From UHGV virus genome UHGV-0197964: DNA of 16,193 nt. One strand, 5' to 3'. This document shows, piece by piece, positions 1,299 to 14,777 of the stretch. A program made the position numbers and the translations under genes. Below the pieces are notes generated by a model that ran no database searches, was not told the DNA's origin, and worked only from the letters and a program-made list of their open reading frames with translations. The first letter of the stretch is position 1; each line of letters starts with the position of its first letter. This DNA is from a virus.

Positions 1299-1374
1299 TG
1301 GTGCTGGTTAACGGACTTGAACCGCTACCCATTCGCTTACAAGGCGACTGCTCTACCATTGGAGCTAAACCAGC
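1299..1374 (-). tRNA. tRNA-Thr (anticodon UGU)
   Basis: Manual cloverleaf: 76 nt, perfect 7-bp acceptor stem (GCUGGUU/AACCAGC), U8 A9, 4-bp D stem with GG in loop, anticodon loop CUUGUAA, T-loop UUCAAGU, discriminator A, encoded CCA. Confidence 0.8.
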
Positions 1375-1379
1375 ATATT

Positions 1380-1454
1380 TGGCGGGACAGCGTGGACTCG
1401 AACCACGATAAGAAGGTTAACAGCCTTCCGTAATGACCTTTATACGACTGACCC
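1380..1454 (-). tRNA. tRNA-Asn (anticodon GUU)-like, possibly degenerate
   Basis: 75 nt; 5-bp anticodon stem with loop CUGUUAA; perfect T arm CGUGG-UUCGAGU-CCACG; encoded CCA; but acceptor stem has one U-U mismatch and D arm is atypical. Confidence 0.5.
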
Positions 1455-2036: not shown

Positions 2037-2221
2037 CGTCTTCCCCTCTTGCCTTGTTTGACCATCAGGACGCCGTTAACTATTACGTGACGCTCACCTT
2101 TGCTGTCTCGGTTGTACTTGAGCACTGTTCCTCTTGCGCAGGAAAGCATCCTCGCCACTTCGGTCTGATTGTCTCGTGTCTGGATAAGAAGCTCTGGTAT
2201 CGTTTGAATTGTGGCGTTCAT
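2033..2221 (-). CDS. ninH: NinH-like small DNA-binding protein
   Basis: Internal Met of the 81-aa ORF gives 62 aa (MNATIQTIPELLIQTRDNQTEVARMLSCARGTVLKYNRDSKGERHVIVNGVLMV...) matching recalled lambda NinH; GGAG 6 nt upstream. Confidence 0.8.
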   Translation of the reverse strand: MNATIQTIPELLIQTRDNQTEVARMLSCARGTVLKYNRDSKGERHVIVNGVLMVKQGKRGRR

Positions 2222-2243
2222 GCGTTCTCCAGTTCGGTGATTT

Positions 2244-2579
2244 TTATTCCAAGCCGTCCGCCTGGTACTTTCCACCACGAATTACGCGAATGTCATCGAA
2301 TTGCTCGTCGTCTTCCGCAAATCCGGCGTGGATAAGGGAATCGAGTAAACCTTTCAGGATGTTGTCGAGGTCGCGGCGGCGGGAGTCTGGAACGTCTGCG
2401 ATGACTTTGATGCGGAGTCGTGATTTGGTGAAAATGTCTAACTTAAGTTGGCGGATGATTTGCTGAACGTCTTTTCGGTATTTCTGGCCTTTATCGCTTA
2501 TGTAATATTGGCTTCCCCGTCTTCGCCAGTAGGTATTCACCGACGGCGGGTATGGAAGCACAAACTGATATTCGTTCAT
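2244..2579 (-). CDS. rusA: RusA-family Holliday junction resolvase
   Basis: 111 aa with the RusA catalytic-region motif PDSRRRDLDN; start overlaps YbcO-like stop (ATGA). Confidence 0.8.
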   Translation of the reverse strand: MNEYQFVLPYPPSVNTYWRRRGSQYYISDKGQKYRKDVQQIIRQLKLDIFTKSRLRIKVIADVPDSRRRDLDNILKGLLDSLIHAGFAEDDEQFDDIRVIRGGKYQADGLE

Positions 2580-2866
2580 GACTTAATCTTCCCCTCCCTC
2601 AGCAGTATCGCCTGCGTCCTGATCACGCCTTCGAGGTGGTAAAGTCTGGCGTCTTTGTTGTCGATATTATGGGTGCGTCGGTCGATCTCCGCGTGGCAGT
2701 CACTACAAGCCCATGCACCGATCAGGTCGTCAGGCTTCATTCCCGTTCCGCAAATTCCAGCCATCCGGTAATGTGCCAGAACTGTAGTTTCAGGATTGCC
2801 ATTGCATACGCCGTAAATACGTACCTGGCATTCTCTGTTGCGCGCTTCTTTGCGTAGGTTAGCCAT
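2576..2866 (-). CDS. ybcO: YbcO-like (DUF1364-type) Cys-rich putative nuclease
   Basis: 96 aa closely matching recalled DLP12 YbcO (ECQVRIYGVCNGNPET...CSDCHAEIDRRTH). Confidence 0.75.
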   Translation of the reverse strand: MANLRKEARNRECQVRIYGVCNGNPETTVLAHYRMAGICGTGMKPDDLIGAWACSDCHAEIDRRTHNIDNKDARLYHLEGVIRTQAILLREGKIKS

Positions 2867-3591
2867 TAAGCAGCCTCTCCTGTTACTTTCAGCATTCCGT
2901 TATCGAGCAGCTTTCTGGTCAGCCACTGTTGGCCACGTCCGGTGATTTTTGTAGTGAACGATATCTGTATTCCGTGATTTGTGTTGACCGCTGTTTCTTT
3001 CACTGTGAAATAGCCGCGATCCATATATTCCTGCATTGGCACATTGCGCCGGGAACCTGAAGCAATAAGGATTTTGTGATCGCGCATCCACGCAAACAGT
3101 TTGTTTGGACCAATTCCAACAACCTTTGCAAAGTTTCCAATCAAAATTCCACTGGCCTCGCCAACGCGATCGGCAAACTCAACTTTAGGTGCGGCAATTG
3201 CGAGCTGGTTTTCCAGTTGCATTTTCTGCTCAGCAAGGTTAGCAGCAAGGCGCAACGCTTCTGGTAGCGTTTTGGGGATATTAACCGCAGCTTCTTCAAG
3301 CTCTCGCCAACGGTCAACAAGGCGAGCGGTGAACTCTGGCGACAACTGGGCGACGACAATAATGCTGTCTCGCTTTCCTTGTTCGCCCTCGAAGACGTAG
3401 AAATCACGCTTCCCGGTAATAACACCTAAATCATTGATTATGTTAGTGTGCTGCAATGCAGGAGGCTTGATAACGCCACGTTTCACCAATCTATCTATGG
3501 ATACTTTTACATTGCTATGGCGGCTTTCTACCAACTCAGCGATTTCAATGCTTGTCATTTTGATGGCATTGCCATTTATTAACTCATTCAT
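2866..3591 (-). CDS. phage antirepressor, Rha N-terminal domain plus KilAC/ANT C-terminal domain
   Basis: 241 aa; N-terminal TSIEIAEL...RHSNV resembles Rha family; C-terminal region resembles KilA-C/ANT; stop overlaps ybcO start. Confidence 0.7.
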   Translation of the reverse strand: MNELINGNAIKMTSIEIAELVESRHSNVKVSIDRLVKRGVIKPPALQHTNIINDLGVITGKRDFYVFEGEQGKRDSIIVVAQLSPEFTARLVDRWRELEEAAVNIPKTLPEALRLAANLAEQKMQLENQLAIAAPKVEFADRVGEASGILIGNFAKVVGIGPNKLFAWMRDHKILIASGSRRNVPMQEYMDRGYFTVKETAVNTNHGIQISFTTKITGRGQQWLTRKLLDNGMLKVTGEAA

Positions 3592-3754
3592 CGTCTTCTT
3601 CCTCGAACATTGAGCTATTCGGATCGCTCATCAGTTCTGCGCAGCAGTGCTCACATACGTGAACTTCCAGCACATGCAGCTTCTGACCGCAATTAGCGCA
3701 CGTTAAAGCCCGCTCGACGCTTTCTTGTTCGTAACTTCGATTTGGGTCAATCAC
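3584..3754 (-). CDS. ninF: NinF-like zinc-finger protein (GTG start preferred; ORF-track TTG/ATG start at 3796 is the alternative)
   Basis: [39 protein letters not shown] matches recalled lambda NinF; GTG at 3754 has GAGGA 9 nt upstream and overlaps the ninE stop (GTGA). Confidence 0.75.
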
Positions 3755-3933
3755 CTTGTATTCCTCGCACGATTTCTTAGCCACCGGATATCCCACAAGT
3801 GAGCCGTGTAGTTGAAGGTTTTTACGTCAGATTCTTTTGGAATTGGCTTGCGTTTATTTCTGGAGCGTTTCGTTGGAAGGTATTTGCAGTTTTCGCAGAT
3901 GATGTCGGTGAAACTTCGTCGCTGTCGTCTCAT
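3751..3933 (-). CDS. ninE: NinE
   Basis: Internal Met gives 60 aa [52 protein letters not shown]..., near-identical to recalled lambda NinE; ATG overlaps methyltransferase stop (ATGA). Confidence 0.85.
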
Positions 3934-4457
3934 GTCGCCCTCCTGACGCCCTGCCCGATCGCCATCAATGCCGCTTTGGATACGGTAGTAAACATCCGTC
4001 GAGGACTGATGAACGGTCGCCAAATCAGCAGCATGGAGCCTTTGCTGTTTCCCTTCTTCTCCAGCCCCGTCGATGGTTCGATAAAATTAATCCGTCCATC
4101 AGTGATGATGCGAACTTCGTCAACGCTCTCCAGAGCCTTGCTGAACCATCCGACTGACATATCCTCTGGCACAAGCATCACTACCGTCTGTCGCTGTTGT
4201 ATGCACTGCTCAGCAGCTTTTTCCACCCACGGCCTGATATTGCTGTACGGTGGGTTATTCCAGATTGCACCGTGGCTTACCCACTCAGAATTGAGCGCGT
4301 CGTCGGCCTCAGTTAGCCAGTGAGCGCACAGAGCATTTTTGTCGCTCGCTGCCGAATCCAGCCAGAATCCAAACTCAATATCCAGTGCATCAAAAAGCCA
4401 AAGCGGCGTTTGCCAGCAGTCCTTGTCGTGTGCCGGCGTATTTGATTTGATAGTCAC
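3930..4457 (-). CDS. phage Dam-type DNA N6-adenine methyltransferase (orphan, no adjacent nuclease)
   Basis: Contains NPPY motif ([10 protein letters not shown]) and CWQTP...LF N-terminal motif typical of phage Dam family; GTG start at 4457 with AGGAG upstream overlaps ninB stop (GTGA); ORF-track start 4493 is a TTG. Confidence 0.8.
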
Positions 4458-4879
4458 TCTACTTGCCTCTCCTTTAGATCCAGGTACTCGCAATTATCAG
4501 GAATGGTTAGTCGTAATCCCTTCTGATGCGCCCACTGGTCAATATCGGTCAGATATTTGTGCATATCTCCAATATCAAGCTGACGTGTTGATTTAACGCA
4601 TCGTGTAATATTAAAAATCGTCACCCTTTTAGCCGGACAAAACATATCTTTCAGCCACTCATGAACCTCTTCAGGCGTGAAGTTTTCAGCAGAAGCAGCA
4701 GATAACTGTGCGGCTATTTCTGCATTCCACACCCACATCAGATTGTTTTGTGACAATGTACGCTTCTCACGGTACTCAGATATTTTGATTCGCCAGCGTT
4801 TGCCGGTAGAGAGGATTTGTTTCAGAACTAACCAGAATTGTGATTTATTGGTTTCGTGCAGAATGAAATCATTCATCAT
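4454..4879 (-). CDS. ninB: NinB/Orf-family recombination mediator (family-level call)
   Basis: 141 aa; position immediately upstream of the nin genes and a conserved segment (RTLSQNNLMWVWNAEIA vs lambda RSLDQNRKLWACLGDVS) support NinB. Confidence 0.55.
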   Translation of the reverse strand: MMNDFILHETNKSQFWLVLKQILSTGKRWRIKISEYREKRTLSQNNLMWVWNAEIAAQLSAASAENFTPEEVHEWLKDMFCPAKRVTIFNITRCVKSTRQLDIGDMHKYLTDIDQWAHQKGLRLTIPDNCEYLDLKERQVE

Positions 4880-5096
4880 CAGTCATCAAATCTAATTGCT
4901 GGATAATTCTGTCACACTGAAAATCATTATCGATTTTAACCAACCGGCGAAGAACGCGGTCACGCGGATAGATACGTGGCTTAGGGGCGTTTTTCTGTCT
5001 CTCGCCAGTCGGAAGTCTGGAAGCAGACCAGTACCGATTTGCACGACCAATGTTCTCCTGAAAGTCGGCGCGGACAAGCTCAGTCATCGAACTCAT
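4869..5096 (-). CDS. hypothetical protein (75 aa) between tR2 and ninB
   Basis: ATG at 5096 with GGAGG 9 nt upstream; no recognisable motif. Confidence 0.5.
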   Translation of the reverse strand: MSSMTELVRADFQENIGRANRYWSASRLPTGERQKNAPKPRIYPRDRVLRRLVKIDNDFQCDRIIQQLDLMTDDE

Positions 5097-5122
5097 TTCT
5101 TAAAGCCTCCAATTACTCTCCC

Positions 5123-5156
5123 CCAAATAAAAAGGCCTGCGATTACCAGCAGGCCT
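5123..5156 (-). terminator. intrinsic terminator, lambda tR2 equivalent
   Basis: Perfect 8-bp stem AGGCCUGC/GCAGGCCU with 8-nt loop then UUUUAUUU on the minus strand, directly after the helicase gene; matches my recall of lambda tR2. Confidence 0.8.
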
Positions 5157-5181
5157 GTTATTAGCTCAGTGATGTAGATGG

Positions 5182-6558
5182 TCATACGTCAGCCCCTTGT
5201 GCATATCGTCTGCCACGCGCAGCAGGTGCATTTGATGCTGTGCAAATCTGTCTGGCTTCATCCTGGTCACACGCAACAAAGTGTCCGTTGCAGAACCGCT
5301 GGTAAACCGTACCAAGTGAGCCAAAACGGTTTTTCGTCACGATGATTTCAGCAAATGGCGCGGCGCTACTGTTCTCGTCATATACAGCTTCCCGATAGAG
5401 CATGATGATTGAGTCTGCGTCCTGTTCAATGCTTCCTGAATCACGCAAATCTGCGTTTGTCGGGCGCTTGTTTGGTCGCTTCTCAACATCGCGTGAAAGC
5501 TGACTCAGGGAAATAACCGGTGTTTTCAGGTCTTTCGCCATCGCCTTCATGCTTCCGGAGATGTGAGCAATTGCGAGGTCGTTGCGGTCTGCTTTCGGCT
5601 TCTCAATCAGGCCAAGATAATCCGCCATGATGAGTGACAGGTTTGGATTTTCCTGTTTGTGCCTTTCTGCGATTGAGCGAATTTCTTCGACCGATAACCG
5701 CGAGGCATCGACTACCCATACATCCAAATCTGCAAGCTGACTCATGCCGTTAGCAACACGCGCCCAGCCTTCGTCATCCATCGATGCAGGATTTCGCAGT
5801 ACGCTAACCGACATTCTCCCGGCGTTGGCAATGCTTCGCTCTGCAATCTGCAATGCGCTCATTTCCATTGAGAAAATCAATACTCCGCGCCGGACGTCAG
5901 AACCAGGAATAACGCGGCTTGCAACGCCTTCGGCAATCTTCAGCGCCAGTTCGGTTTTCCCCATACCAGGACGAGCAGCGATTATCACCAGGTCTTCTGC
6001 GTTCATCCCTCCGGTGATAGCGTCAAGCTCTTCGATTCCGGTCTTCAGGGTATCGGACTCTTCTCCGTTCCTCAGACGCCTGTCAAGCGTGTCAGTGTAG
6101 TCGGTGATGATTTCCCCTAACCGTACAGGTTTAACCTCGTCACGGGGCTTTCTGATAGCTGAAAGACGCTTTACGAGCTCGTCCATCGCCTGACTCGATG
6201 TATCGATGGTTCCGCTCTGAATTGGTTCACGCATTTCATCCATGATTTCCAGCACCAGACGGCGGTGATAGTTATCCGCGACCATTCCGGCATATCCCTT
6301 CAGGTTTGCGGCACTCGGGCAGTTTTTGCTGGTCATCAGGATTGACGTGAAATGCTCCTCTCCGCACGCCTCGGCAACCATCAGCGCGTCGATTAGGTTT
6401 CTGTTTCGCGCCTGCTTGCGGATAACCTCGAAGGCTTTCCGGTAGAGCGGAATTGAAAACGCTTCCGGCTCCAGCGTTGCCAGAACGTCGCTGGCGGTTG
6501 GTGTTAATCCACCAATCAGCAGGCCACCGATAACGCTCGCTTCGATATCCTGTTTCAT
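5182..6558 (-). CDS. DnaB-type replicative DNA helicase (P22 gene 12-like)
   Basis: 458 aa; Walker [12 protein letters not shown] and DnaB C-terminal domain organisation; ATGA overlap with upstream initiator. Confidence 0.9.
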
Positions 6559-7502
6559 GCAATCCCCCTGTCTGCAAACTTCCCTTCCCGAACTCCCGTT
6601 AACGAGTCTTCTCTCAGCAGGTAATCAAAATCAGCCGTCCAGCCCGTGTCGTTGTCTCCGAAGTAAAACGGCTTGGCCTGATGCACAAACGCCCTGACAT
6701 ACGCCCTGAAACCGTCCACGTTTGGCGTTTTCAGTTGCGGGATGATTTTCTTCAGGCGGCGTTTGCGTTTCTCGTTGACCGCAACAGCGTGTGGCAGTCT
6801 GTCACCGACTTCGGTGTTGTAGGCGTTCAGGAAGGATTCGTAGTCGATTCGTTCTGCCTTGCGACGTTCAGGTTTAACCTGCCCATCGCCTCCCCCATTG
6901 GGGGGTAGGGGGGTATTATTTATATTCTTGTTAATACCTTCTTGTTCATGATGTGCGGTTGTTTGTGCGGCTTCATGTGCGCTTTCATGTGCGGCATGTA
7001 CGCTGAAAGCCGCGCCATTGCTGGCTTCATCATGTGCGGAATCATGTGCGGTTGTTTGTGCGGCTTCATGTGCGGGTAAATCGTCCATTTTTTGAGCATA
7101 TTCATGGTAATTTGTGATGGTTATCACACGACCTTTTTGCTTCTCTCCATCAATGGAGATCATCCCCTCTTTCACAAAAACCTGAAGCATCCGCTCAACC
7201 TGATCACGGCTTGCTGGCTTGCCATGTCTGTCGCATAACTGAAGACCTAAATCAGCTGCTGTCACAACCAGTTGACCGGGTTGCAGATGCCATTCATTAC
7301 CTTTGAAATTCGCTTTGTATGGCTTTCTGGCGGCATTCAGGAGAAGGTTTTCCCACAGGGTGCGAAGATAAACATCTTTCGCCCATGACTGTTTCAGAAT
7401 GCTCCGGTACAACGGAATGTAACCAGTTTTCTGGTTCTCCATCCTGTTGCTCCTGCGCTCGTGTGCGGCGCTGAAATCGTAGATTTTTGCTGTATTGCTC
7501 AT
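6555..7502 (-). CDS. replication initiator (O-like / replisome organizer) with His/Ala-rich repeat linker
   Basis: 315 aa; N-terminus [10 protein letters not shown] resembles lambda O start; sits immediately upstream of and coupled to the helicase; internal repeats coincide with the DNA iterons. Confidence 0.75.
6949..7074. repeat. iteron array inside the initiator gene: 31-bp perfect direct repeat (6951-6981, 7044-7074) built from ~9-bp CATGTGCGG-type units
   Basis: Counted directly: about 8-9 copies of (C/T)(A/T)TGTGCGG at ~11-12 bp spacing; flanked at 6915-6940 by a ~85% AT stretch. Confidence 0.7.
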
Positions 7503-7788: not shown

Positions 7789-7866
7789 GTTGGATGTTGT
7801 TAAAATTCCATTTGTATTTGATCAGAACGCTCGGTCTTGCACACCGGGCGTTTTATTTTTTTATGT
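7789..7866 (+). ncRNA. oop: oop-like antisense RNA (~78 nt) with its own -10 and intrinsic terminator
   Basis: Perfect TATAAT at 7777-7782; transcript would start GUUGGAU...; terminator hairpin GCUCGGU/ACCGGGC (7 bp, one G-U) at 7829-7850 followed by a U-rich run to ~7867; resembles recalled lambda oop in length, start and 3' end. Confidence 0.5.
7802..7852 (-). repeat. unused second copy of the cII 3' end, downstream of the HNH gene
   Basis: Minus-strand frame reads RPVCKTERSDQIQMEF-stop, homologous to lambda cII C-terminus (RPAATERSEQIQMEF); shares CCGGGCGTTTT with the active cII 3' end at 8333-8345. Confidence 0.65.
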
Positions 7867-8281
7867 GCTTCCATTTTTCACCTCTGCAAATGGCAGCTAT
7901 ATAATTTGGCGTTACTCCATATTTTTTTGATAATGCCCTTGTGTTGAATAAGGGGTGTCTTGGTATATATTCACTAATGATGTTTCTTACATCATCTTCA
8001 GTTAATTTTGCCCTACCATTCCTGCTTCCAAATGCCTGCCTTTTTCTCTCCACCATGTCATTTGCGTTTTGCTGACTTGTCCCAGCACATAAATGAGAAG
8101 GTAAAATACAAGAAGGATTGTCACATGCGTGACGAATTACTAAGCCATCTATATCTTCAAGCTGGATCCCTTTTGCCACACAATAAGCAAATCTATGAGC
8201 AAATACTTTTTTCCCATTAATCCAAACCCTTCCATAACCCTTGCTGTCCTTTAAACCGCCAAATTCCAAACACGGAGTCAT
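7853..8281 (-). CDS. HNH homing-type endonuclease (HNH_3-like)
   Basis: 142 aa; GYGRVWINGKKVFAHRFAY and HACDNPSCILPSHL motifs typical of phage HNH endonucleases; visibly AT-richer than flanks; own RBS 10 nt after the cII stop. Confidence 0.85.
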   Translation of the reverse strand: MTPCLEFGGLKDSKGYGRVWINGKKVFAHRFAYCVAKGIQLEDIDGLVIRHACDNPSCILPSHLCAGTSQQNANDMVERKRQAFGSRNGRAKLTEDDVRNIISEYIPRHPLFNTRALSKKYGVTPNYIAAICRGEKWKHIKK

Positions 8282-11736: not shown

Positions 11737-12705
11737 ATGAGTGAAGTAACAGATTTAGTTGTTATTGAAAAAGCAAATGCAATGACTGTATTTCAGTCTT
11801 CCGACCAGATTGAAGAAATCCTTCAAAAGGTTGAACGTGAAGTTATGTCCTTTGTGCCTGATATCACAACGGCAAAGGGCAGAAAGGAGATCGCTTCTCT
11901 GGCGTATAAAGTTGCGCAGACGAAAACATATCTCGATGGTCTTGGCAAAGACCTTGTTGCTGAACTGAAGGAAATTCCAAAGCTAATTGATGCCAACCGC
12001 AAGACAGTGCGTGATCGCCTTGATGAGCTGAAAGCCAAGGCACGCCAGCCTCTTACTGATTATGAGGAAGAACAGGCGCGGATTAAAGCCGAAGAAGAAG
12101 CTAAGGCAGCAGCTGAAGCTCTCGCAAAGCAAATTGAGTCTGACCATGAAATAGCGATTTTGATGGATCGCGAATTTGACCGCCAAAGAGAAGAGGCAAG
12201 ACTCAAAGCGGAGCAGGAAAAGCGAGAGCATGAAGAACGATTAAAAAGAGAAGCTGAAGAGAAAGCCAGAGCAGAAGCCGAAGCAAAGGCAAAAGCCGAA
12301 ATTGAAGCAGCAGCAAGGCGAGAAGCAGAAGCTAAGGCCGCAGCAGAACGTGCAGAGCGTGAACGCATTGAAGCCGAGCAACGAGCACAGCGCGAAGCAA
12401 AAGAGGCAGCAGAACGAGCTGAAAGAGAAAAGCAGGCAGCAATTGAAGCAGAACGCAGAAAAGCACAGGAGGAGGCTGAACAAATCCGTCGCGATGCTGA
12501 AGCAAAAGAGCAAGCCAGAATAGCAGAAGAAAAAAGAATCAAGGACGAAGAAGAGCGTAGAGCAAAGGATAAAGATCACCGGAAAGAAGTAAATAACAAA
12601 ATACTTGCTGACCTTATCAAGGTTGGCGCATCAGAAGATGTTGCTAAAAATATCATAACAGCCATCGTAAAAGGCGAAGTATTCGCAACAAAAATAACCT
12701 ACTAA
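11737..12705 (+). CDS. hypothetical protein (322 aa) with a ~150-aa Glu/Ala/Lys/Arg-rich predicted coiled coil
   Basis: AAGGAGG 11 nt upstream; central EAEAKAKAE / AERAERE low-complexity repeats between globular-looking N- and C-terminal segments. Confidence 0.7.
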   Translation: MSEVTDLVVIEKANAMTVFQSSDQIEEILQKVEREVMSFVPDITTAKGRKEIASLAYKVAQTKTYLDGLGKDLVAELKEIPKLIDANRKTVRDRLDELKAKARQPLTDYEEEQARIKAEEEAKAAAEALAKQIESDHEIAILMDREFDRQREEARLKAEQEKREHEERLKREAEEKARAEAEAKAKAEIEAAARREAEAKAAAERAERERIEAEQRAQREAKEAAERAEREKQAAIEAERRKAQEEAEQIRRDAEAKEQARIAEEKRIKDEEERRAKDKDHRKEVNNKILADLIKVGASEDVAKNIITAIVKGEVFATKITY

Positions 12706-13252: not shown

Positions 13253-13960
13253 ATGGATTTGAACAAATTCGATGAGCCATTCAGCCCTGAAGATATCGAA
13301 TGGCGAATACAGCAAAGCGGTAAAACACGCGATGGCAAGGTGTGGGCTATGGTGCTGGCTTATGTCACGAACCGGGCAATCATGAAACGCCTGGACGATG
13401 TTTGCGGCAAAGCAGGATGGCGCAATGAATACCGCGATATTCCCAACAACGGCGGAGTTGAATGCGGCATATCAATCAAGATTGATTCCGAATGGGTAAC
13501 CAAATGGGATGCTGCTGAAAACACGCAGGTAGAAGCCGTCAAAGGTGGTCGTTCCGGTGCAATGAAGCGTGCTGCCGTTCAGTGGGGAATCGGTCGGTAT
13601 CTGTATAACCTTGAGGAAGGTTTCGCACAAACATCTCTCGATAAAAAGCAGGGGTGGCACAGGGCAAAACTGAAGGATGGAACAGGATTTTACTGGTCCC
13701 CTCCATCGCTGCCGGGATGGGCAATCCCAGCATCAGATAACAAACCATCACCAGAAAATACCAACCAGAAATCTCCATCGGTTGACTGCGAACAAATCCT
13801 GAAAGACTTCAGCGATTATGCGTCAACAGAAACTGACAAGAAAAAACTCATCGAGCGTTATCAGCGTGACTGGCAATTAATGGCTGGCAACGAGGAGGCG
13901 CAGGCTAAATGCGTTCAGGTAATGAACATCAGAGTTAACGAACTAAAACAGGCGGCATAG
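13253..13960 (+). CDS. single-strand annealing protein: Rad52-like N-terminal domain with P22 Erf-like C-terminal domain
   Basis: AMKRAAVQWGIGRYLYN resembles the Rad52-family annealing motif; C-terminal ~55 aa closely match the recalled P22 Erf C-terminus (ETDKKKLIERYQ.DWQL...KCVQVMNIR.NELKQ). Confidence 0.7.
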   Translation: MDLNKFDEPFSPEDIEWRIQQSGKTRDGKVWAMVLAYVTNRAIMKRLDDVCGKAGWRNEYRDIPNNGGVECGISIKIDSEWVTKWDAAENTQVEAVKGGRSGAMKRAAVQWGIGRYLYNLEEGFAQTSLDKKQGWHRAKLKDGTGFYWSPPSLPGWAIPASDNKPSPENTNQKSPSVDCEQILKDFSDYASTETDKKKLIERYQRDWQLMAGNEEAQAKCVQVMNIRVNELKQAA

Positions 13961-14467
13961 ATGGCAAGCAGAGGCGTAAATAAGGTGATTATCCTTGGTC
14001 GGGTAGGACAAGACCCGGAAGTTCGATACTCACCATCAGGAACAGCGTTCGCTAACCTGACAATAGCCACGTCAGAACAATGGCGAGATAAAAATACTGG
14101 CGAGCAAAAGGAATTGACTGAATGGCATCGTGTTGCTGTATCCGGGAAACTGGCTGAGGTCGTGGGGCAGTATGTGAAAAAAGGTGATCAGATTTATTTC
14201 GAGGGAATGCTGAGAACCAGAAAGTGGAAAGACCAGTCAGGGCAAGACCGTTACACAACCGAGGTTCATGTCGGAATTAATGGCGTGATGCAAATGCTTG
14301 GCAGCATTGGCGACAGCAAACAACAAGCAGCCAGCAGGCAATCACAGAAGCCACAGCAGCAATCATCACCAGCACAACACAACGAACCTCCGATGGATTT
14401 TGACGACGATATACCCTTTGCACCAGTAACTCTCCCCTTCCCTCGTCACGCTATTCACGCAATTTAA
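13961..14467 (+). CDS. ssb: single-stranded DNA-binding protein
   Basis: OB-fold N-terminal region ([23 protein letters not shown]), Gln-rich linker and acidic C-terminal tail DFDDDIPF. Confidence 0.9.
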
Positions 14468-14480
14468 TCAGGAGAAAATC

Positions 14481-14777
14481 ATGCCAGCGCCTCAGTATGG
14501 TGCGGATGACCCGCGCCGCTGTTCCGGCAATTCCGTATCGGAGGTGCTGGATAAATTCAGGAAAAACTACGACCGGATAATGTCGCTACCGCAGGAAACG
14601 AAAGAGGAAAAGGAATTTCGCCATTGTATATGGCTTGCAGAGAAAGAAGAACGCGAGCGAATTTACCAGACATCAATCCGACCATTCCGCAAAGCCACAT
14701 ATACCAACTTCCCTGAATATATCGACCCGCGCCTGCGTAATTACCGCTCACGCTATGGCGCTATCAGTAATGACTGA
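14481..14777 (+). CDS. hypothetical protein (98 aa)
   Basis: ATG 13 nt after ssb stop; no motif recognised. Confidence 0.5.

Follow-up and report, generated by a model that had tools for sequence, protein, structure and literature searches.

M.EcoVT2Dam, the REBASE entry for the Dam protein of Stx2 phage VT2-Sakai, was reportedly cloned and characterised as GATC-specific by Radlinska and Bujnicki in 2001. A passage of a later study lists it as "known to target 5'-GATC-3'" (PMC6602927, citing Radlinska & Bujnicki, Acta Microbiol Pol 2001). Besides VT2-Sakai, it occurs in 933W, Phi24B, HK97, Sf101 and other phages, with HK97 and others carrying proteins that are 98-100% identical (PMC3342100). 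Lactococcal M.Phi93DAM is another small "NPPY-only" enzyme of PF05869/TIGR01712, for which GATC methylation and DpnII protection were shown by SMRT sequencing and DpnI/DpnII digests. HP1 Dam and T1 Dam, two names that appear in the VT2-Sakai annotation, would be further small NPPY-only GATC methyltransferases of this kind.

E. coli Dam and T4 Dam (PF02086 MethyltransfD12, alpha-class) share with the protein described below the reported target, the N6 of adenine in GATC (an expectation in our case), and the chemistry of class-I methyltransferases in general, including a (D/N)PPY loop. In Gammaproteobacteria, the GATC specificity that host Dam has in common with most of the Dam-like enzymes of phages has been ascribed to convergence (PMC5537653), and the role of phage Dam has been called "not well understood" (PMC7556043). 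The literature asks why a phage with a Dam+ host would retain a GATC methyltransferase unrelated to that of the host and at the same time deplete GATC from its own genome; for this question, the stretch of DNA analysed here is a typical locus and not a special one.

The locus and its neighbours

We analysed a window of 16,193 bases that is 100% identical over its whole length to a lambdoid prophage in the chromosome of E. coli MS14385, which was isolated from human blood. It takes in the prophage's regions for immunity and replication and its nin region, with the rightward early operon on the minus strand (cro, cII, an HNH gene, an O-like gene, a DnaB-type helicase gene, the nin genes, Q, two tRNAs and the lysis genes) and the leftward operon on the plus strand (N, kil, cIII and a recombination module). 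The methyltransferase gene and its immediate surroundings comprise:

3930..4457, minus strand: phage N6-adenine DNA methyltransferase CDS, 175 aa, GTG start, TGA stop; RefSeq WP_078207911.1, "phage N-6-adenine-methyltransferase"
4454..4474, minus strand: methyltransferase start junction, with a Shine-Dalgarno-like run AAGGAGAGG (4466..4474) and a GTG start that overlaps the upstream TGA (GTGA, 4454..4457)
3930..3933, minus strand: overlap of the methyltransferase stop and the ninE start (ATGA), read from the sequence
3751..3933, minus strand: ninE (PF05322 NinE, E 6.9e-42)
4454..4879 (RefSeq start 4876), minus strand: YbcN-like gene in the ninB slot (NCBIfam PRK09741, 182 bits)

An N6-adenine methyltransferase reading frame with an NPPY motif had been predicted at 3930-4457 and is real: RefSeq CDS WP_078207911.1 has exactly these bounds on the minus strand, and the product matches PF05869 and TIGR01712. 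The uninterrupted mechanical ORF extends further, from 3930 to a TTG at 4493 (3930..4493), and RefSeq places the start at the GTG at 4457. The gene overlaps each of its two neighbours by 4 nt, and the ATG of ninE is preceded by a Shine-Dalgarno-like AGGAGG. Overlaps of 1-8 nt are present at each of the 9 gene junctions between the DUF7301 gene and Q, so this stop-to-start packing is the normal style of the nin region and nothing peculiar to the methyltransferase gene. A promoter scan of 3400..5300 returned 0 sigma-70-like sites. With a stop/start overlap on both sides and no promoter of its own, the gene is organised for nin-operon coupling, translational coupling itself being a prediction.

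The gene had also been described as translationally coupled between ninB and ninE. Both overlaps (GTGA and ATGA) and the identity of ninE stand, but the upstream partner is YbcN-like and not a canonical ninB. This upstream gene, annotated as hypothetical in RefSeq, matches phrog_72 (NinB/Orf, 1e-34) and reaches 18.8 bits with the Pfam NinB model, below the cut-off. Its protein is 30% identical (E 1e-21) to YbcN of K-12, the DLP12 "DNA base-flipping protein", and aligns with VT2-Sakai NinB (E 0.021) only over an RxxxQNxxMW motif. The gene in the ninB slot is YbcN-like, a distant NinB/Orf relative and not a canonical ninB.

When the window was compared with the VT2-Sakai locus by BLASTN, a 711-bp block (3746..4456) comprising exactly dam and ninE was 97.9% identical; the homology broke off at the start codon of dam and, in the other direction, shortly after the stop codon of ninE. 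Dam and ninE are a classic mosaic module with joints at gene boundaries and travel as one unit. The joint between the ninB-slot gene and this pair coincides precisely with the first codon of dam, which is GTG here and ATG in VT2-Sakai. As here, dam of VT2-Sakai follows the ninB-slot gene and shares an ATGA overlap with ninE. In contrast, the upstream gene is a canonical NinB in VT2-Sakai and YbcN-like here, and downstream of ninE we found ninF and a KilAC antirepressor where VT2-Sakai has H0107 and Roi.

The gene is widespread. At 95% nucleotide identity or more, 1566/5426 complete E. coli genomes (about 29%) carry it, some in as many as 5 copies, and it is found in 244 phage records, among them VT2-Sakai, Min27 and Sf101. 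Its usual flanks in other genomes and phages are NinB and NinE, and protein-level relatives occur in 1908 phage records. It is already in RefSeq and has dedicated Pfam and NCBIfam models, and its discovery value is little.

Several other features of the window can be recorded here. Tandem 12-bp units (consensus about TTCATGTGCGGN, 6945..7087) inside the O-like replication gene are presumably origin iterons, and an HNH_3 / zf-His_Me homing-type endonuclease gene (7853..8281, minus strand) is inserted between cII and this O-like gene. The rusA gene (2218..2579, minus strand) is frameshifted according to RefSeq, which calls it a pseudogene; an open frame at 2244..2579 matches PF05866 over most of its length. 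Genes for tRNA-Thr (UGU) and tRNA-Asn (GUU) lie between Q and the holin gene (1299..1454, minus strand), a position from which a toxin gene is absent; in Stx phages, tRNAs and stx genes are found between Q and the holin position. The two tRNAs were the only matches in an Rfam scan, which found none near the methyltransferase gene. On the plus strand, a segment encoding a Rad52/Rad22-family annealing protein, SSB and the anti-RecBCD protein Abc2, the last as in phage P22, replaces lambda exo/bet/gam (13253..14777), and a gene at 11737..12705 encodes a 322-aa "cell envelope biogenesis protein TolA" with no Pfam or PADLOC match.

Family, fold and target of the enzyme

The protein matches PF05869 "Dam" over profile positions 1-167 of 169 (Pfam; E 6.4e-65, 218.4 bits against a cut-off of 28.1) and the TIGR01712 equivalog over positions 1-165 of 165 (NCBIfam; 265.9 bits against a cut-off of 97.05). 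A search against phage Dam profiles, which the original prediction had named as its own check, has turned out in its favour, both models being matched end to end and above their cut-offs. Further matches were to phrog_111 (PHROG) and to the PADLOC "orphan methyltransferase" models. With family matches so far above chance, the protein is identified as a phage N6-adenine DNA methyltransferase. Two conserved motifs can be placed in its sequence:

4245..4256, minus strand: catalytic motif IV, N68-P69-P70-Y71 (AAC CCA CCG TAC), read from the sequence and invariant in an alignment of 37 homologues
4344..4361, minus strand: motif-I-like segment L33-D-S-A-A-S38, where the first beta strand ends (E31-36 in the AlphaFold model)

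In this alignment of 37 homologues of 60-86% identity, no change occurs at NPPY, T17, P18, L33, D34 or A36, and there is almost none at W15 and Q16 (conserved in 90% or more). The catalytic motif, whose loss on careful alignment would have counted against a methyltransferase, is retained in 37/37 sequences. The L33-D-S-A-A-S38 segment lines up with LDPCS of a lactococcal GATC methyltransferase homologue and is the candidate AdoMet-binding segment. The protein has the family layout, with WQTP and LDxAA segments in a small single domain without a separate target-recognition domain.

A confident AlphaFold2 model made from the homologue alignment (pLDDT 89.7, pTM 0.87) is one compact domain of alternating strands and helices, in which NPPY directly follows strand E64-68. 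The protein is a compact single-domain class-I AdoMet-dependent methyltransferase with a motif-I-like LDSAAS segment and a catalytic NPPY loop. A sequence search of the PDB gave no relative of the methyltransferase (best E 0.24), and PF05869, a family of 16,105 clusters at 50% identity (E <= 0.001), appears to be without any solved member structure. In a Foldseek search, the best PDB neighbours of the model were the N6-adenine methyltransferase domains of PCIF1/CAPAM (6irv-6is0, E 2e-4 to 9e-4, TMq 0.52-0.62), followed by farther matches to CamA, BrxX/PglX, EcoDam and METTL3/14, all with E > 0.03. The nearest solved folds to the model (3933..4457, minus strand) are thus eukaryotic mRNA cap m6Am domains and no bacterial DNA methyltransferase. 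Sequence identity to PCIF1/CAPAM, in which the domain is part of a eukaryotic RNA-cap enzyme of ~480 residues, is 13-15%, and the likeness is at the level of the fold only and uninformative on substrate.

Is the enzyme a member of the E. coli Dam family? We rejected this assignment: BLASTP against K-12 Dam gave an E of 7.5, and there was no PF02086 match at E <= 0.001. The structural match to EcoDam is weak (4rtl/2g1p, E 0.09-0.34, TMq about 0.34-0.35; Foldseek), and the protein has 175 aa and no separate DNA-recognition domain, against 278 aa for E. coli Dam. The term "Dam-family" in the original prediction is correct as Pfam naming only and fails as a statement of homology to E. coli Dam. 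As far as sequence comparison can tell, "Dam" is a functional name for a PF05869 gene, with no detectable sequence similarity to E. coli Dam.

The relationship to VT2-Sakai Dam (BAA94133.1) is close: the two proteins are of equal length and identical at 174/175 aa. Their genes are 98.5% identical in DNA and differ at 9 nt: (i) 7 differences are synonymous third-position changes; and (ii) the remaining 2 affect the start codon (GTG here, ATG there) and the last residue (T175 here, A there). This pattern indicates purifying selection. The same 98.5% DNA identity links the gene to 243 other phage records. It is the orthologue of M.EcoVT2Dam, the nin-region orphan methyltransferase of lambdoid/Stx phages, and as such is already known and annotated.

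A more distant homologue, from lactococcal phage PhiM1127 (135 aa, 33% identical, E 1e-22), occupies the same TerS-MTase-HNH-MTase-TerL slot as described for M.Phi93DAM. It has the WxTP ... LDxxx ... NPPY layout in common with the protein here, lacks residues 126-135 of the latter and lies between terminase genes, not in a nin region. Because the protein is 174/175 identical to M.EcoVT2Dam, which is reported to be GATC-specific, and with the lactococcal homologue in addition, we hold the adenine of GATC as a strong expectation for its target. Contrary to the original view that target specificity cannot be read from the sequence, GATC can be inferred from this near identity.

A specificity other or broader than GATC, which would create a new methylation motif in the host, is very improbable. 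The wider PF05869 family is very diverse (the 16105 clusters mentioned above), some other phage adenine methyltransferases are relaxed (PMC7556043), and one residue is unlike that of M.EcoVT2Dam. However, this sole amino-acid change is at the C-terminal residue, and strains with 99%-identical copies show m6A at GATC, CTGCAG and CRARCAG only, each of which has been assigned to another enzyme (PMC6602927).

Restriction partners and expression

Consistent with its original description as an orphan with no restriction endonuclease nearby, Pfam, the RefSeq annotation and PADLOC, the last run on 9 neighbouring proteins, revealed no restriction endonuclease in the whole window, and the PADLOC "oMTase" and type II MTase models match the methyltransferase alone. 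A type II restriction-modification system pairs a methyltransferase with an endonuclease, and there was no candidate for such a partner. The nuclease-like genes of the window are the HNH_3 homing-type gene 3.4 kb away, YbcO and the frameshifted RusA. That the methyltransferase is the modification half of a restriction-modification system, with the HNH protein (7853..8281) or YbcO (2576..2866) as its nuclease, is effectively refuted. An HNH_3-domain protein and a "putative nuclease YbcO" do occur in the window, but neither gene is adjacent to the methyltransferase gene, and no PADLOC restriction or defence match was found for either of them or for the 9 scanned neighbours. HNH_3 and zf-His_Me are moreover homing-endonuclease signatures, hundreds of genomes have the NinB/NinE flanks without HNH or YbcO genes, and VT2-Sakai keeps the dam-ninE block amid different flanking genes.

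Upstream of the nin genes, we found one structure that may bear on expression:

5123..5156 (hairpin 5133..5156), minus strand: intrinsic-terminator-like hairpin and T tract from a terminator scan; fold -17.3 kcal/mol, z -2.06

The hairpin closely follows the helicase gene and belongs to 70 bp (5116..5185) that VT2-Sakai shares at 100% identity. We take its position (5133..5156) to be that of lambda tR2, upstream of the nin genes, and it is a putative functional terminator. An unannotated 30-codon hydrophobic ORF (5093..5185) overlaps it. Since the methyltransferase gene has no promoter-like site of its own in 3400..5300 and lies in the pR operon behind this hairpin, its expression is expected to need repressor loss and N antitermination. 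Located past a tR2-like terminator, the gene would encode an N-dependent delayed-early product of lytic growth or induction. In keeping with this expectation, the dam gene of Phi24B, whose product is 100% identical to VT2-Sakai Dam, shows a significant change in transcript levels upon induction; it had, however, originally come out of a screen for genes that lysogen cultures express (PMC3342100). By analogy with this lysogen screen, expression of the methyltransferase may not be strictly lytic.

The role of a phage GATC methyltransferase

What would a phage gain from its own GATC methyltransferase? The host already has Dam, which makes the benefit of extra GATC methylation questionable. Self-protection and epigenetic control, the roles originally proposed, are standard hypotheses for a phage dam gene and unproven. 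On a wild-type host, lambda DNA reaches 46% GATC methylation, and overproduction of Dam raises this value to 77% (bioRxiv 10.1101/2025.08.29.673000); in virions of P22 and L, the DNA is undermethylated too (PMC8022706). Host Dam is limiting for phage DNA that replicates fast. The phage GATC methyltransferase, produced together with the replication genes, may supplement it and bring this DNA to full methylation. Full GATC methylation would in turn make progeny DNA resistant to DpnII/MboI-type restriction enzymes, and to MutH at unmethylated sites. The identity, family, motifs, fold, gene context and prevalence of the enzyme are shown here, and its GATC specificity is taken from the literature on M.EcoVT2Dam. 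We infer both this role and the timing of expression, and consider such a top-up of GATC methylation the most likely job of the enzyme. Taken as a whole, the explanation of the gene as an orthologue of M.EcoVT2Dam that methylates GATC, is expressed as a delayed-early gene and has a top-up role is highly probable.

Evasion of mismatch repair could be a sub-mechanism and is compatible with the top-up explanation. Here, full GATC methylation would block nicking or cutting by MutH of unmethylated sites in heteroduplex recombination intermediates. The gene is surrounded by recombination genes (the NinB/Orf-like gene, RusA and the Rad52-like/SSB/Abc2 module), both strands are MutH-susceptible at unmethylated GATC, and lambda DNA is about half-methylated (bioRxiv 10.1101/2025.08.29.673000). 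We nevertheless regard this contribution as unlikely: raising GATC methylation of lambda from 46% to 77% left its mutant frequency unchanged, and undermethylation does not impair mismatch repair on lambda (bioRxiv 10.1101/2025.08.29.673000).

Alternatively, the enzyme could be an epigenetic regulator that is made in the lysogen or early in infection and sets GATC methylation at prophage or host regulatory sites (e.g., SeqA, OxyR-type). Instead of protecting DNA, it would then make lysogeny more stable or modulate host genes. The authors who recovered Phi24B dam from lysogen cultures suggest that it may help host Dam to maintain the lysogenic state (PMC3342100), phase variation by Dam/OxyR is established for P22-like prophages (PMC8022706), and stable 933W lysogeny is reported, in a citing source, to require host Dam (Murphy et al. 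2008, as cited). The last observation also cuts the other way, because a prophage copy active in lysogens would be expected to make host dam unnecessary for 933W stability. Furthermore, a Dam+ host methylates about 99.9% of chromosomal GATC (PMC6602927), so a prophage copy adds little in a lysogen, and the gene belongs to the CI-repressed pR operon, where it follows the terminator-like hairpin and has no promoter-like site to itself. A regulatory role of this kind seems to us distinctly unlikely.

Beyond a top-up of host methylation, the phage copy could be non-redundant. Hypermethylation of GATC or near-cognate sites in the replication burst after induction might flip a regulatory circuit of the phage or its host, or overcome an unrecognised defence that reads un- or hemimethylated GATC. 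We hold this to be a doubtful conjecture with little likelihood; if true, it would account for the retention, under purifying selection, of a seemingly redundant enzyme in 29% of complete E. coli genomes despite GATC avoidance by the phage genome.

Does the window itself avoid GATC? GATC is strongly under-represented: base composition predicts 63 sites and a Markov estimate 77, but the window contains 29, an observed/expected ratio of 0.38 relative to the Markov estimate. Among 4-bp palindromes, only CTAG is lower (0.15), and GGCC stands at 0.49. A GATC-free stretch of 2.7 kb (4478 to 7157) was rejected as a signal; we estimate that chance would produce a gap of about this size at the low GATC density of the window. 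There are few GATC sites to protect, and GATC avoidance is also operating in the window, an oddity in a phage with its own GATC methyltransferase. Earlier work has described prophage regions poor in GATC and a shortage of GATC in coliphages (PMC6602927; bioRxiv 10.1101/2025.08.29.673000).
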